DNA of 61,452 bases, the filler included, from Sphacelaria rigidula (taxonomy: Eukaryota), in the NCBI GenBank assembly GCA_964200075.2. It is 9 parts of 9 records of this genome, joined end to end, with 100 filler letters (N's around TTAATTAATTAA, not from the genome) between each part and the next. Parts side by side here need not be neighbours in the genome. Positions count along the whole stretch, not along the records: positions 27,358 to 34,096 come from CAXNAA020018322.1; 8 more parts are not named here. One strand, written 5' to 3'. Below the pieces are notes generated by a model, which saw only the letters and a list, made by a program, of their open reading frames with translations, searched no databases and was not told where the DNA came from. Positions 27,037 through 35,300 of this stretch are shown here, one piece after another. The translations under genes and the position numbers were made by a program. Each line of letters opens with the position of its first letter. The first letter of the stretch is position 1.

Positions 27037-28397
27037 GTATGGTGAGTATCCCTGATAGTCGGCGACTTCGTGACGTCACTTCACAGACTATGTTGAATAC
27101 ATGGGCGAACGATGGCCATCAACTAGATGGGTGCGGTTACATCATAGCCAACAAGGAGTATGGGCGAATGATGTACATACAAAAAGAAAACGTGCAGGGC
27201 CCTTCGACAATACCTCAACATCCATCCTACCCTAGTTTTGTTTCGTTTGGTTCTGATNNNNNNNNNNNNNNNNNNNNNNNNNNNNNNNNNNNNNNNNNNN
27301 NTTAATTAATTAANNNNNNNNNNNNNNNNNNNNNNNNNNNNNNNNNNNNNNNNNNNNCCCGATTTTTTCAAAATCAGGGTCCAAAAAAATCGGGATTCGT
27401 TTGCCAAAAAAGTGGGTCTGAGGCATCACCCTAAATTTCGCCTGACCCCAGATTTTTCGCCTGCGGCGGGCCTTCATTCATTTGCCTTAGAAGTCAGGGT
27501 CTAATGCTGACGCCTTAGAATGACGAACGGCCGAGTGATGAAAGAACAGGGGAAGTTCTACCAGTATCTTCATCACCTGACCGCTGTTACTGAATATGCA
27601 AGTTAGGTTTAAACCAAACCTTCGGCCGCCTCGGCCAGCGGAAATGTAAACTTGGCCTGAAACGGCCTCAACGAGTAGAACAAATCATTTCAAGGCGTCA
27701 ACATCCGCCTACCAATGGACCTCAGCAGCGAATAAAGAGGAGGGAATGCCGTGGCACGCGGAAGTGCTGCAGGAAGCGAAGAGGTTCATGACCTCATGGC
27801 ACAGAAATGAAGAGGAGGCCAGCCGACTACATGCGAATAGACGGGAGACCAACGAAATTAAACCGGTTTGACCGAAAAAAAACTCCAGAATTTAAGAAAA
27901 TCAGAACCGGAACCGGTAGAGGGCCGTCAAGTATCTGGGTTCCGACCGGTTCTTTCAACGGTATCCATCTTCTCGCTAGGCTCTTGCTGCTTGTGTCGTC
28001 GTCAGAAACAAATTCTTCGGCAGTACACGGACAAAAGGAAAGCCCATGCGACCATGTCATCAACGCACACAGCTGGTAACATTCGATCATTGGACAATGA
28101 AACATCTACCGTTACTGTCACGAGATTAGTTCACCCTCCGGTACAGCAGTCACGCGCACGGTCGGCACCACACGCATTGTTCAAATACATTCAACGCACC
28201 CCCTCTTTCGACAAGTCGAACACGATGTTCAGTGAAACCCCCGCAGGCCCCCGCACCGGCGATGAGCGGTACTTGAACGTCACCTCATTCAGAGCCTCGT
28301 GCTTTCGGTTATGGCAGCCGCAAGTCCATCTTCGCATGCCTCGGGCAGACCAGATCTTGTATGTATACATATCGAGGCGCATTTTCACCTTGCTGGT

Positions 28398-28422
28398 GGG
28401 TGGTGTTGAGTAAACACCAGGG
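28398..28422 (-). promoter_or_regulatory. Histone mRNA 3' stem-loop (H2B)
   Basis: CCCT-GGTGTT-TACTC-AACACC-ACCC on the minus strand, 58 nt after the stop codon; identical to the H2A copy. Confidence 0.85.
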
Positions 28423-28480
28423 TTGTGCAAGGAGAACTGCGGGGAATTGTGTCAGACCACGACCCCCTACAGATGATGAT

Positions 28481-28831
28481 CTAGGATGAAGTGAACTTGG
28501 TCACGGCTTTCGTGCCCTCGGACACGGCGTGCTTCGCCAACTCTCCGGGGAGCATCAGGCGTACGGCCGTCTGCACCTCGCGAGAGGACAAGGTGGACTT
28601 CTTGTTGTAGCGAGTCAGCTTGCCGGACTCGCCCGCCACGCGCTCGAACACATCGTTGATGAACGAGTTCATGATGGACATGCCGCGCTTAGAGATACCC
28701 GTGTCGGGGTGCACCTGCTTGAGCACCTTGTAGATGTACGACGAGTACGACTCCACTTTCTTGGCCTTCTTCTTCTTGTCTCCGGCCTTCTTGGGGGCCT
28801 TGGCAGACTTCTTCGACGGTGTCTTGGCCAT
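28481..28831 (-). CDS. H2B: Histone H2B (116 aa, intronless)
   Basis: [15 protein letters not shown]...[40 protein letters not shown]...[23 protein letters not shown]. The true start is the ATG at 28831; the 38-aa upstream extension in the ORF track is not histone-like. Confidence 0.98.
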
Positions 28832-29204
28832 CTTTACTCTTTGTTGTGTATGGTCTGAAGTTGGGTACGAAGGGATGTGGATGAGGTGGGGTGTGGTGTT
28901 CCCGAGGTTCGGAGGTCGCTCTGCTGTGCTGCAAGTTGAGTTCAAAATTCAAAATTGGTAGTGGAGGAGGCATGTTCGTTCAATGTTCCCGTTCGCACCT
29001 CACATTGGTGTGGGCCAATCAGCGATGTTACAGCCGTTGCAATAGGGGTGCTCTCGAACCTTTGTAAATTTGAATTTGAGACAGACAGACCGATCGCACC
29101 GTTGTTTTGCTCTTGTGACCTCCCTCCAGCCCACACTTCACACTCCCATCTACCACCACAACACACATCTTCAACATCTGTGAAGTCCATCAGCAATATC
29201 AATC
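28832..29204. promoter_or_regulatory. Bidirectional H2B/H2A promoter and 5' UTRs
   Basis: 373 bp between divergent ATGs. Back-to-back CCAAT boxes (ATTGG 29004-29008, CCAAT 29015-29019). Tandem TTTGA(A/G) motifs on each gene's own strand (28941-28953 minus, 29069-29080 plus). Confidence 0.8.
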
Positions 29205-29582
29205 ATGTCTGGCAAGGGAAAGGGCGGACGTGGTGAGGGCAAGAAGTCGGTGACCAGGTCTGCCAAGGCGGGCCTGCAGTTCCCCGTTGGCCGTATCGGC
29301 CGTTTCCTCAAGAGGGGCAAGTACGCGTCTCGTGTGGGCGCCGGTGCCCCGGTGTACCTGGCTGCTGTGCTGGAGTACCTGACCGCCGAGGTGCTGGAGC
29401 TGGCTGGCAATGCTGCTCGCGACAACAAGAAGGCCCGTATCGTGCCCCGCCACATCCAGCTGGCTGTGCGCAACGACGAGGAGCTGAACAAGCTGCTCGG
29501 CGAGGTGACGATCGCTTCTGGTGGCGTGCTGCCGAACATTCACGCTGTCCTCCTGCCCAAGAAGGTGGTGAAGAAAGACTGA
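29205..29582 (+). CDS. H2A: Histone H2A (125 aa, intronless, canonical type)
   Basis: MSGKGKGGR...[18 protein letters not shown]...[54 protein letters not shown]...[15 protein letters not shown]. No SQ(E/D)phi H2A.X tail. Confidence 0.98.
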
Positions 29583-29660
29583 GCTTCCCCGGATTCAACG
29601 TGTAAAGTCTCGACTCTGGCAGACCACCTGTGCCCGCCGCAAGGTGGAGCCAAAGCAAAC

Positions 29661-29685
29661 CCCTGGTGTTTACTCAACACCACCC
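29661..29685 (+). promoter_or_regulatory. Histone mRNA 3' stem-loop (H2A)
   Basis: CCCT-GGTGTT-TACTC-AACACC-ACCC, 78 nt after the stop codon. The rest of the two 3' UTRs is not alignable. Confidence 0.85.
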
Positions 29686-30377
29686 TTGCAGAAAAGAAAC
29701 GATGTGACTCGTATTGACCGCCATGCGCACAGCACAGATGCGCACCTCGACATCGTACACTAGACTGACAGGAATGACAGCATCCGACGAGTCACTGGAC
29801 GAACTGCGACACCAGGACTGCACGCCCGACTTTATAACTTTCGAGGACGTGACCGTGGACAAGATGCGCGATGTGAGACCAGTTTTCATCTCTTCTGCGA
29901 AGTCACTCTTCTCAACCCCGTAATCCCCATGCAGAGTAGGCGATGTGTTAGGACTGGGACGCCGTTATTTTTCACTGTTGGGGAAAGCCTAGCCACGTGG
30001 GTAGAGGAAAGGTTGCATGATTTTGTACATCGAAGGTTACTTTTATGAAGGAGTGGGTGTCGCTCGGTACAAGACAAAATAGAACACCCGAGGAATCGGT
30101 CGAATTTGTCGTACCTTCCGTAGTATTCACGTACGGTAATGCGGTGAAGTCCGGTCCCGAATTAGGGGACGGTACCCCAAGTGCAGTACAGTGTGGACAT
30201 TGGACTTTTGCTTCACATGCGCAATTTTTCAGTGCGCACTCTTCATTTTGTCCATTTTCGAAAGTGAAAATTGTGCGCCAACTTATGCGTATGTTGGTGA
30301 AGTATGCGCGACTTGGCCCAACTCTAATGGGAGCTCTTCAAAATTACCCCAAAAATTGGCTTTTGGACCCTTCTCTG

Positions 30378-30722
30378 TCGATTTACGCCCGGAAATAGGG
30401 CTAGGCGGATGTTGACGCCTAGAAGTGACTTGCTCCACTCGTTGAGGCTGTTCTAGGGCAACTTTGCATTTCCCCTGGCCGCACTTTCGTGTCTGGCTAA
30501 ATGAGGCCAAACACGGATTTTCAGCAGGAACGGTCAGGTGGTCAAAATTTCCCCTTGATTTTTGATCGCTTGACCGTTGTTTGTTGAAATCCGTGTTTGG
30601 CCAAAAATGTGAGTGCGGCCAGCGGGAAATACAAAGTTGACCTGGAAAGGCCTCAATGAGTAGAGGAAGTCATTCCAAGGCGTCAACATCCGCCTACCCC
30701 TCTTTTCAGGCGTAGAACGACG
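30378..30722. repeat. Foldback element; one arm also at ~27632-27713
   Basis: TAGGCGGATGTTGACGCCT (30402-30420) mirrors AGGCGTCAACATCCGCCTA (30678-30696), with arms of about 100 bp. Confidence 0.75.
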
Positions 30723-30850
30723 AAGTAGGGCCAAAATGGCAGTCTTGCACAATGTCGAACGGCTCCCACTAGAGTCGTTCTTACGCGCCTTTTTCGCGTA
30801 GTTCCTGAGGTGGTTCCTGTCGACAATGCTCATGGAACATACCTTCCAGG

Positions 30851-31179
30851 TGTCGGGATTAATCTGTGTGTAGTACCCTGAACGTATCCCAGGGCAAGCG
30901 CCACAGCTGCTCAGCTGATCGGGGGAATGATGTAAACACGAAATACGCAGCTGAAATTATTGACGGTTCCCGAGAACGTGGAGAGAAGAGTAAACAAGGA
31001 GGTGACAATCTACAGATCTACAGTACCATTACCCTGACGGTTACAACAAGTTGGAACCGTAACCAATCACACCGACTATTCTGTGTCTCAACAGTCCTTA
31101 TGTCAGGCTGCAACCATGATGACGCCGTAACGCTCTTGAACGTTGACTACTAAACGATTAGACATACCATTTTTTGACA
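30851..31179 (-). repeat. Candidate 3' LTR of the copia element
   Basis: On the minus strand a short purine run (TTGAGGAG, 31180-31187) precedes TGTC..., and the segment ends ...GACA at 30851. No second LTR is present in the contig to confirm it. Confidence 0.35.
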
Positions 31180-32063
31180 CTCCTCAACGGAAATAGCATC
31201 TTGAAAATATCCTTCTCTATCAGGATCATCTTCAATTCATAACGTCAGTATAATGTTGAAAGGTTAACGAACAGTATACTCCAATTGAACACGACAAACC
31301 TTAACTAACTAATTCAAAAAAATCTATAGATGGCAAACACATACATGCAAACTTCAAACTAGTGGCTACTGCTACGATAAGCTATATATTCCTTGCTTAA
31401 ACTAGTGACACTACTGCCACGGTAAGTTATCCACTCCGTGTCAGTCGTGCTTTCGTCGTCATTGTCTTGGTCTTGATTGCTTGAACAGTCACATCGGTAT
31501 TGGTACAGTCAGAACCTGAGTAATTTTATTTAACAAACAACACGCAAAAGTTACACATGAAGACAGAGGGATTGCCCCCCCCCTTTCAAGCCTTTTGTCA
31601 GTTGCTAAAGTTCTTGATGAGATTCATAAGAAAACGGAACCTCTGAGTTGAAAGTAACTTTGTTCCGATATCAGCTATTTGATTCTCTGTTTCAATGTAA
31701 TGAGTTGTGATCTTCCCCGATTCCACCAACTCCCTCATGAAGAAAAAACGCAAGGCGACGTGTTTCGTCCTTCCGCTGAAAATACGGTTGGCAATCACTT
31801 GAAGAGTTGCCGTGTTGTCTAGGTAGACAGCTACAGTGTTGAACGATGATCCACATCGCATCTCAATAATCATATTCGAGCAGTAGACCGCCTCCTTGAT
31901 GGCGAGTGCTCCGGCAACCCGTTTCACTTCCATCGTTGATTGTGCAATAAGTCCCTGCAGCCCGACTTGGAAGCTAACCGGGGCTTTCCGCCAGCATGCA
32001 TCGAATCATAGCAGCCAGCGTCCCTCCATCGCGTTCGGAAATCCCAATCTGCTGAGGCGTGGT

Positions 32064-32307
32064 GTTGTTGTCTTCACATTAAAAACCGTTCCGATATCTA
32101 CGCGGTACATTCGTACTGGGCATCTGATGCGGACGCCTTCCGTGGTCACAGGCTAGAAAAAAAACAAAATATACAATAACAAAATAGACCCAGATTCAAA
32201 ACGCACAAAACGCGATACAAGCAAAGCACGAATAAATAATAAAGAAGGGGAGTACATGTGGCTAACCTCAGAAGATCCGGTGCCGCAGGTGGCCATTCGG
32301 ACTTCAG
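32064..32307 (-). mobile_element. 5'-truncated non-LTR 3' end inserted into the copia integrase
   Basis: Interrupts ...ESAAT / TTPQQIG... T-rich body, a GTGACCACGG motif shared with other LINE 3' ends in the window, and a short (CAA)n-like tail. Confidence 0.6.
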
Positions 32308-35300
32308 GGTGGCAGCAGACTCAATGCGAAGTCCAGAGTTCAAACAGTATGTGTGAAACCCGTTTCCTGTGTACTCTCCTCCGTTGTCAGCACGAAGTCG
32401 CTTGACACGGGCTCCACGTGGGATCACTTCCGTTTGGATGAAAGTCTGGAATGTCTTCAGAGCATCGCCCTTTGACTATGTGAGATACACGTACTTCGAT
32501 CGCGTCAGAAAGTCCGTCAACTTGCTCATGTATTTAAATCCCTCAATTGCTTCTGGAGTAATCGGTGCCATCATATCACCAATTATTAGTTCGTACTGAC
32601 GAGATACTTTGTAGACGGCAGTCTCGGGGTGAGCCTGTTGTTTCCTTTTGCTCAACGCACACATATCGCACGGAGAAAGATTACCCGTGAAAATCACCCC
32701 ACTCCCGTCTATGCCTCGTATTGTGTGAAGTGTCTTGCTAGACACGTGTCCGAGGCGCCGGTGCCACAATTCTGCGTTCGCTGTTGTTAACATCGCCACT
32801 GTATTTGCTGTTTCCCCTTCGGCTGAAGCCACCTGCTTCCCTGTACCCGCGCCGGCCGCACGATCCACGCGTATGATGAATGTGTATAAACCGTGGTCAT
32901 GGAGTGACTGTTTCAGGGGTAGTTGGAAAGACGCGACTTCCAAGCGTGGATTCGCCGGGTCGAACACGACGTTGATTCTTCTTGTGACAGCGTTCTTGAC
33001 AGAGAACAAGTGGCCCCCAGACCTGGAACTACCTAAGATGGGAGAGATACTTCGTGAGAGACTCCATGTTGGTCTGTAACCTTTCCTAGGACCGTAACTG
33101 AAGCTGTAGCATTCAACACATGTCCCCCGGCCGCAGTTATTTGGAAGGGATTGGGTAAAATCGTGTAGTCGGGGAAACTCTCCAGTAAGCCAGGATTCAA
33201 AGAGTTGTCGGTTGTCCCGCTGTCGACCAGTAGGGAGAGTAGAGTGTCAAAAGCCAGCAAAGCTACACCCATAGTGGGATGTATCGTTCTACATTCCGTG
33301 GCTTCCCCGATCGCTACATATATCCGACCGTCCCCGGCGGGTGGCACTCCAGGCTGAATCGGTCTCCCAGCAGCTGGGTATCCGGTTGCTGTAGCACCAG
33401 CCGTTGGTTGCGGCTGGTGTGCGGGTGCACCGATGACTGCGTTAGAAGGGTACGCCGCCATGTGCGCGTAGTGCGCCACACCAGCAGCAGCATTCTCTTT
33501 TTGAATGCGGCAGTCAGCATCGTTATGAGTTTTGGAACAATGATGAGAACACCACTTCGCCGTTTTTTCGTTACCGTTGGTATTATTGGTGCCTGACTTA
33601 CCCCCTTTTTTCTTCTTCTCTCTACACTGCAATGTAGAACGCCAGTATCTAAATGTGGCAATGTCATCCCTGTCAAAGACATCCAGCAGGCGCATTGCCT
33701 GTGTAGCACCTTTCTTCGCCTCGGTCATGTTTGCTTTCGGGACGTAAAATTTGTGCCCAAAGAAGCGCACTTCGGTCAGTGTGCTGACCACGTCACAACT
33801 CGTACAGTATAGACGAGCTGTCAACACCTGCTAGAAATAGCCAGGTGTACTGCACTAGAATCCGCAAACACGAAAAGTCAATGTGATGCTCCAGTGATGA
33901 AACCGCACGCCGTTCAGTGTGCGAACTCAACACACCACTCGTGCTGTATAGACGAGCTGACGTTGGTCTGTGCTTACCCAAAGCACTACTCGTACTGTAT
34001 AGACGACATGTAAACACCTGCAAACCAGCTTGAACAGTGTTTTCGTGAGATTGAGAGTAGATGATACGATTGAGAGTGAAAAGCGGTCAATCAGTGNNNN
34101 NNNNNNNNNNNNNNNNNNNNNNNNNNNNNNNNNNNNNNNNTTAATTAATTAANNNNNNNNNNNNNNNNNNNNNNNNNNNNNNNNNNNNNNNNNNNNCACC
34201 CAAGACACCCTACTTGCAAGCAGTGCAAACAGTACAGATCATGTACCGTTTCACGAATTTCACTGTCTTTTTTCGATCGAAAGCTTGAAAATCCATCCGG
34301 ACCCAACTGCATCAACACGATAATCTTTCGCTCGGATCGATTCTACCGCCTCATTTTTTCGATCGAAAAGAAAAGTGCGAAGGGCCTGTCAGAAAATGAC
34401 AGAAGCAGTTGCTGTAGTTTTCCTTCATCAAAATCAATTAGATATTTTTCCGTGGTGTGCTCCCACGTGAAGATATTTACCTTTCTCTGGCAGGCGCGTG
34501 ATCGCCCTTGTGGAGATTTTTCACTTGGTTTCAGAGTAGGACGGAGTGCGAGTTGTAATTTGATTTTCCTTCACGAATGGATCGCGGGTATTCTAGCCCA
34601 GTAGAGGCGTGGCTCGCATCGTACAGTCAGTACTTCAGTACTCGTTGTACTGGCGCTAGGAACACATAGTGTAAACTTCGTCAGGTATTACCGTGCGCGG
34701 ATGCATATCGTGCAATAAACGCTTTCGACATTCGTAGTGATATACATCCTTTCCCATCCGGCTGTCAGCGCGCGAAAGCTGGTCCGTAGCGCCAGGTATC
34801 CGTGCTGATGTGGAGACCTCTCTTCCGAGGACGTCTGCCCCTCTAGTCTCACCGTATGTCCGGCCTTAGAGTATGGCCGTCTCCAATTGACGCCGTGGAT
34901 GATGAATTTCAATTTCAATCCAATGCCTCCATAATAGAAATCATATAAAATAAATAAATTAATTAGTTATTGTTTGGGGATGGAATGGTTGGTTGGTCGG
35001 TTGGTTGGTCGGTTGGTTGGTCGGTTGGTTGGTTGGTTTTGTATTTTATTTTTTGGAGAAAGGAAGGACAAATATCTATAATATATATATTCAAAACTTA
35101 TTAATTAATTAATAAACCCAAGACTGTTTGAAGATGGATGGTAAGATGGTAGGATGGTAGGATGGTAGGATGGTTGGTTGGGATTGAATTTCATTTTTCG
35201 GACAAGGGAAAGACAATAGAGAGACAATATATTGTAATATTGAAGAGGAACAACACTGAATGAGCACGTTCTTCCGGTTCGGGTGGACGACATTCGACTA

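Follow-up and report, generated by a model that had tools for sequence, protein, structure and literature searches.

Histone 3' hairpins with a five-nucleotide loop and a candidate U7 snRNA in the brown alga Sphacelaria rigidula

Described histone stem-loop systems and the H2B/H2A locus

In animals the histone stem-loop (Rfam RF00032) lies 25-60 nt from the stop codon and has a conserved U as the third of its four loop bases, according to the portions of the preprint 10.64898/2026.10.14.759114 on which we draw. The same portions report both Lsm10 and Lsm11 in Ectocarpus, describe Lsm10/11 as widespread, suggest that the emergence of U7 moved processing closer to the animal pathway and, in the main text, name a predicted U7-like RNA for Rozella only. 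Note that this survey scanned for hairpins with a 6-bp stem and a 4-nt loop only, and itself states that other loop lengths may be missed. In Physarum, a stem-loop, a histone downstream element (HDE), SLBP and Lsm10/11 exist alongside polyadenylated histone mRNAs, and a bona fide U7 was not found there, according to the sections of PMC8600027 used here. For U7 itself, Marz et al. (PMC5054213, in the sections cited here) list RUUUNUCYNG and UCUUU as its conserved anchors, describe the gene as usually single-copy, regard U7 as virtually certainly restricted to animals and doubt the C. elegans candidate. A term search of the accessible text of 10.1101/2020.03.09.980763, on Ectocarpus histones, found no mention of a stem-loop or SLBP, and one of the accessible text of PMC12775136 gave no matches. 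Titles and abstracts likewise yielded no brown-algal histone pentaloop and no stramenopile U7, subscription journals lying mostly outside that search.

We compared these systems with a divergent, intronless H2B/H2A gene pair on contig G000:C18322 of Sphacelaria rigidula (assembly GCA_964200075.2; Table 1), an alga that resembles Chlamydomonas, Volvox, Physarum, Rozella and Ectocarpus in having an SL/SLBP-type system outside animals. The window, that is the whole stretch of DNA analysed (61,452 nucleotides), consists of about nine 6.7-kb contigs joined by N spacers at 6839-base intervals, and gene neighbourhood is therefore not real outside 27358-34096. Named members of the 90% clusters of the two histones are Ascophyllum, Ectocarpus, Scytosiphon, Hapterophycus, Sphacelaria, Choristocarpus, Phaeothamnion and one diatom. 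The original prediction for this locus was that an identical 25-mer, folding into a hairpin with a non-canonical loop, stands behind both genes, and this holds in both respects. Specifically, the 25-mer has two exact matches in the window, one behind each gene and on opposite strands, with no third match when up to 3 mismatches are allowed (100 shuffles give an expectation of 0), and it folds (z = -2.83) into a 7-bp stem, made of 6 bp and a flanking U-A pair, that closes a 5-nt loop. The stem begins 62 nt from the stop codon in H2B and 82 nt from it in H2A.

Table 1. Coordinates of features at the H2B/H2A locus (positions in the window) and of the candidate U7 snRNA gene (contig position)
Feature	Position	Strand	Basis or detail
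H2B histone downstream element, purine tract then CGCC	28375..28391	-	predicted U7 pairing site
H2B 3' stem-loop	28398..28422	-	stem 28418-28413 / 28407-28402, 5-nt loop 28412-28408, then ACCC
Histone H2B gene, intronless, 116 aa	28481..28831	-	ORF; 90% cluster names brown algae and Phaeothamnion
Two TTTGAA motifs upstream of H2B	28941..28953	-	sequence
Two opposed CCAAT boxes, divergent promoter	29004..29019	.	sequence
TTTGAA motif upstream of H2A	29069..29074	+	sequence
Histone H2A gene, intronless, 125 aa	29205..29582	+	ORF; 90% cluster names brown algae and one diatom
H2A 3' stem-loop	29661..29685	+	stem 29665-29670 / 29676-29681, 5-nt loop 29671-29675, then ACCC
H2A histone downstream element, purine tract	29690..29699	+	purine content
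U7 snRNA candidate L088	G000:C1826:5516-5586		promoter, HDE-complementary 5' end, U7-type Sm site, 3' hairpin

Hairpin and downstream element behind the histone genes

A 17-nt core of the hairpin is present in 51 copies genome-wide versus 0 for the reversed control, with 39 of the copies behind histone genes and 12 without an upstream histone. A script assigned 38 of the histone-linked sites (H2A 8, H2B 9, H3 7, H4 8, H1-like 6), and the 39th, behind an H1-like pseudogene, was assigned by eye. Here 'H1-like' denotes a lysine/alanine/proline-rich last exon recognized by composition rather than by Pfam, and the counts retain one frameshifted H3 as well as one H3 whose hairpin, behind a partial duplicate, lies 304 nt away. 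When the stem was kept fixed and any loop of 4-6 nt was allowed, a pattern that does not impose histone linkage, there were 99 matches versus 16 in the control. Fifty of these matches have other loops and 19 of the 50 are histone-linked, which brings the histone-linked hairpins to 58 (39 + 19) across H1-like, H2A, H2B, H3 and H4 genes. These counts bear out the proposal that histone genes have a 3'-end signal of their own with a 5-nt loop, and the H3, H4 and H1-like genes carry the hairpin too. The hairpin also lies 147 nt after the stop codon of L037 (G000:C19118), an H2A whose C-terminal tail is SQDY and which we take to be H2A.X-like.

The loop has 5 nt in 54 of the 58 histone-linked hairpins, 4 nt in three and 6 nt in one, and its penultimate base is U in all 58; among the pentaloops, U occupies position 4 in 54/54 and position 1 in 52/54. 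At gathering level the Rfam Histone3 model (RF00032) has no match in the window; under relaxed settings it scores 13.6 bits on the H2A copy, against a gathering score of 34, and places a single inserted base in the loop. Since the conserved U stands third among the four bases of the canonical loop and is the penultimate one in the algal loop, the simplest reading is that the latter is a canonical 4-nt loop with one base inserted mid-loop, between the first and the penultimate U. The hairpin shares with animal RF00032 a 6-bp stem opening with GG, a G-C pair at the second stem position as well as the penultimate loop U, and its genes share with the animal ones ACCC after the stem, a purine tract downstream and intronless core histone genes. 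Unlike animal RF00032, it has a 5-nt loop, the stem GGUGUU/AACACC and CCCU before the stem. With this loop length and this Rfam score it is classed as a new variant of the animal-type histone stem-loop. The description of the 5' flank in the original prediction stood in part: CCCU does precede the stem, but the flank is more than a C-rich stretch, with A the most frequent base from -10 to -5 (20-32 of 38 sites).

Loops of this kind also occur in other lineages. A metagenome comparison of the best 80 of 487 loci for this H2B, in which the script required perfect pairing, found a 6-bp hairpin that opens with GG and precedes AC or AT at 61 of 120 histone ends (41 loci). The loops of these 61 hairpins have 4 nt (44), 5 nt (15) or 6 nt (2), and their commonest stem is GGUGUU (28); longer loops are found in 11 of the best 80 loci, some with a penultimate A. 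GGUGUU is a stem common among protists, pentaloops are not confined to brown algae, and loop expansion has taken place elsewhere, probably more than once. Another lineage among the metagenome loci (L151, L153, L156, L157, L167, L201) has the stem GGUGAA/UUCACC and 5-nt loops, for example AACAU and CACAU, without the penultimate U, and locus L150 has 5- and 6-nt loops. Diatom-like loci (L136-L154) have GGAUUU-type stems and 4-nt loops, and between roughly +11 and +17 they have a CAAAG box that would predict a CUUUG guide in a diatom U7. A scan of viral contigs for the hairpin gave 0 matches, a count that does not by itself show absence.

We next turn to the sequence downstream of the hairpin. 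It had been claimed that only H2A has an obvious purine tract there and that no U7-type downstream element can be made out. Neither statement survives, as the H2B gene also has such a tract, with 7/8 purines at +12 to +19, and the tract recurs across the genome; the Lsm10-like, Lsm11-like and U7 candidate genes described below also count against the second statement. The element was defined as a stretch from +12 to +19 after the stem in which 7 or all 8 bases are purines, a criterion set on the first 39 sites, and by this definition it is present at 33/39 first-set sites, versus 0/39 and 1/39 at two control offsets. It is likewise present at 19/19 second-set sites, giving a histone total of 52/58, and at 10/31 of the non-histone free-loop matches. 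The top 4-mer at +19 to +30 is CGCC, found at 11/39 sites in the first set (tied with CCTC) and 8/19 in the second, versus 3/58 and 2/58 in controls. The constant distance of the element in 52 of the 58 sites implies selection for a ruler-like reader.

We consider it likely that these elements are replication-dependent histone pre-mRNA 3' signals that are cut by an animal-type SLBP/U7 pathway. In such a pathway SLBP would bind the histone hairpin, a U7 snRNP (an Lsm10/Lsm11 ring on the candidate RNA of Table 1) would pair with the purine tract and CGCC, and CPSF73 would cut about 5 nt past the stem to leave a histone message without a poly(A) tail. By analogy with animals, the predicted cut in the H2A pre-mRNA falls after 29686, and the H2B pre-mRNA would be cut after 28397, 5 nt past the stem, under the rule given in the Fig. 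1 legend of 10.64898/2026.10.14.759114, a preprint used here in part.

It is also conceivable, and in our judgement unlikely, that histone ends in this alga are mixed or mainly polyadenylated, with SLBP serving stability or translation, read-through being usual and U7 cleavage being minor or stage-specific. Precedents exist in Physarum (PMC8600027) and in the fungal model of 10.64898/2026.10.14.759114, as far as the sections used of each extend, and the median distance from stop codon to stem in the alga is 83 nt (32 genes), which exceeds the range in animals. Against this reading stands the fixed distance of the HDE, with the selection that it implies, and AATAAA is absent from 31/31 downstream 300-nt stretches, versus its presence in 18/193 of the background windows, an absence that is weak evidence because the alga could use a different poly(A) signal. 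Among contigs assembled from 4 runs, one in X1 ends at 29686, exactly 5 nt past the stem, and others span both hairpins; the X1 contig end counts neither way, because a paralogous 30-mer would break contigs there anyway. Cleavage by an SLBP/U7 pathway remains the reading that we favour for these ends.

Upstream of the genes, TTTGAA is found in 29/34 histone upstream regions versus 30/293 background windows, and CCAAT in 22/34 versus 35/293. The TTTGAA motif stands about 110-140 nt before the ATG, often together with CCAAT, and the H3 and H4 genes have a longer TTTGAATTGAGAGATGAC form. It resembles what we take to be the CHR cell-cycle element, and judged by their sequence these motifs would fit cell-cycle-coupled transcription.

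Dispersed repeat families also bear the hairpin, often with an intact HDE, and have no histone gene. These are L282/L283/L284/L285 (G000:C11331, C19235, C8862, C24384), L278/L279 (C8413, C3143), L014/L018/L024, L001/L006/L019/L043 and L009/L028/L042. In L282, L283 and L285 homology starts at the hairpin and extends 280-600 bp downstream, and in L278/L279 and L024 there are degenerate ORFs with a PREAEL motif that end 37-99 nt before the hairpin. These repeats may be mobile elements that have taken over, or make use of, the 3'-end signal of histone genes.

SLBP, Lsm10-like and Lsm11-like genes

The original prediction also implied an SLBP adapted to the altered hairpin. At the default threshold the SLBP profile PF15247 has no match in the genome, and the search needed an E of 10 because the SLBP gene is split into exons. 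It then aligned to two exons in order on contig C25935 (profile positions 29-70; E 0.017 and 8.2, both under the cut-off). The first of these exons has only SLBPs as its PDB matches (4/4), and a relative (P0004) with 72% identity over it contains a complete PF15247 domain (E 1.8e-26). With P0004 as query, both C25935 exons were recovered together with an upstream exon on C4103. The TP motif and the FD and WRRRLH helix motifs that are conserved in SLBPs are present, and the exon for helix A was not found in the fragmented assembly. A word-indexed homologue search with one SLBP exon gave no matches, and a second apparent relative from a representative search (P0002) was dropped as a repetitive artefact.

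An SLBP gene is present as expected, and its product departs from other SLBPs at a conserved position that reads RNA: the alga and 2 close relatives have SKK, versus S[KR]R in 19/19 other SLBPs, the sole one of named source among these 19 being green-algal. We take the variable column to be that of Arg181. In SLBP this arginine makes the sole base-specific contacts, which are to stem G7, according to the part of PMC10388802 used here. From the alignment, the G7-reading arginine thus appears to be replaced by lysine in the alga. On this numbering the changed residue would map to the stem-G contact and not to the loop; an altered SLBP specificity and co-evolution with the pentaloop are conjectural.

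With regard to the ring proteins, the Lsm10 and Lsm11 calls rest on single exons among 20 LSM matches in the genome. The best match of the Lsm11-like ORF on contig C5114 is human Lsm11 (E 0.0028), by a thin margin over SmD2 (0.0036), and a separate SmD2-like gene is found on C2644; no N-terminal Lsm11 motif was seen on contig C5114. This frame (L128, G000:C5114:7476-8465) has about 250 low-complexity residues between Sm1 and Sm2, far above human Lsm11, and an in-frame intron may lie inside this spacer. For the Lsm10-like gene on C5647, the second exon has human Lsm10 as its best PDB match (E 2.7e-4), followed by SmD3 (0.041), and the first exon alone matches Lsm2.

A candidate U7 snRNA and what it would mean

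The Rfam U7 model (RF00066) gave 6 matches genome-wide, the best at E 0.26 and none over the cut-off. All six were rejected as sub-cut-off and as having no snRNA promoter by eye, and the candidate described here is not among them. The alga's U1, U5 and U2 genes are clustered, a few kb apart at most, on shared contigs (G000:C20114, C25777, C24969) and have one promoter element in common. From its U1, U2 and U5 genes we derived the promoter core ACGGGSTTTY, located 54-57 nt before the start, and used as search pattern the exact core followed by a pyrimidine tract. This gave 40 matches at 25 distinct places versus 44 in the control, so that the pattern alone is at chance level, and all 25 places were read. 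The pattern makes no use of the 16 bases preceding the core, and these scored positive at 3/25 places (L108 15.6, L088 8.8, L275 3.4; true snRNAs 4.1-20.7 leave-one-out) and negative at 22/25. L108 (G000:C16129:1451-1539) was rejected as U7, its strong promoter being followed by T-rich low-complexity sequence without an Sm site; L275 was rejected for its lack of an Sm site, and L091 has the boxes but a promoter score of -18.2.

The remaining place, L088, reads as a well-formed candidate U7 snRNA gene in a stramenopile. Like U7 snRNA, it is about 70 nt long and has an snRNA promoter, a UCUUU box, a UUUNUC core, a 3' hairpin and a single gene, which is intergenic and lies outside any open frame of at least 100 aa. 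It has an A at the spacing found in 7/11 snRNA genes, CGTG at -22 as in 3/4 U1 genes, and AAC past the 3' end as in 4/4 U1 and 3/4 U5 genes. Its Sm site, AAUUUCUCGAG, agrees with the published U7 consensus at 9/10 positions, with one mismatch and the UUUNUC core intact; the alga's spliceosomal snRNAs have plain U runs at this site. The 3' hairpin has a z of -2.87, with 3/200 shuffles equally good. Unlike U7, L088 has no Rfam score, the mismatch in the Sm site, about 10 unpaired bases from the Sm site to the hairpin and a stramenopile host. As the Rfam U7 model gives no match to it up to E 10, we file the locus as a U7-like candidate and not as a member of RF00066. A metagenome scan for the promoter with a U7 core gave 0 matches, which does not in itself show absence.

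The 5' region of L088 complements the HDE and holds the UCUUU box. The search pattern itself selected for this region's pyrimidine core, and for this reason core pairing is not independent evidence; nucleotides 2-5 (GGCG), which complement CGCC, were not selected. The mean predicted duplex with the HDE is -10.4 kcal/mol at the 39 sites versus -4.7 to -7.3 at 12 other offsets, with 0/1000 shuffled guides pairing as well, and on the second set it is -11.7 kcal/mol versus -7.4 and -6.2 at controls. Within the window, the predicted duplex of the candidate 5' end is -11.1 kcal/mol for the H2B element and -5.2 kcal/mol for the H2A element, the weakest of the 39. When the core is fixed, the 5' nine bases of L088 do no better than their own shuffles (197/600) or random heads (72/600), and U1 fragments and a few non-snRNA matches reach similar duplex energies.

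These last results bear on a further alternative, namely that U7-type processing is real but that the C1826 locus matches by chance, is a pseudogene or encodes some other small RNA, the true gene falling in a gap of the assembly or having a variant promoter. The failure of the Rfam U7 model and the non-significant head-shuffle test agree with it, as do an assembly of 27,214 contigs from which an SLBP exon is absent and a search that needed the exact promoter core. We nevertheless hold it to be quite improbable, since promoter, spacing, UCUUU box, Sm site, hairpin and 3' flank coincide at 1/25 places, and since the locus is single-copy, as is usual for U7 (PMC5054213, sections as above), and free of long frames. 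The C1826 locus stays our candidate for the U7 gene of the SLBP/U7 pathway. That the HDE is read by a protein or other mechanism without U7, or owes its similarity to recent gene duplication or conversion, is very improbable: histone genes are multicopy with some paralogous UTRs, and C. elegans, whose stem-loop ends are not known to need U7, provides a precedent, but the motif is common to five unrelated histone classes with otherwise different UTRs, Lsm10- and Lsm11-like genes are present, and related stems with compensatory changes lie behind histone genes in other protist loci.

On balance we lean towards a broader view, in which a complete U7 snRNP pathway operates in brown algae with a U7 too divergent for Rfam, U7 predates animals and stems from a stramenopile-animal ancestor near the last eukaryotic common ancestor, and SLBP was remodelled for the 5-nt loop, with lysine in place of the G7-reading arginine. 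If this is true, U7 would not be an animal invention and would be close to the last eukaryotic common ancestor in age. A stramenopile candidate makes it possible to test directly whether U7-dependent histone processing is specific to animals. The method of intersecting a genome's own HDE with its snRNA promoter is applicable to diatoms, oomycetes, green algae and amoebae. Because 5-nt loops exist, surveys fixed on 4-nt loops undercount such systems, and the pentaloop offers a natural variant for the study of how SLBP recognizes RNA shape. The pentaloop hairpin is a variant of a known system and the U7 candidate is the larger result; taken together, the genomic evidence suggests that the animal pathway for tail-less histone messages may also run in seaweeds.
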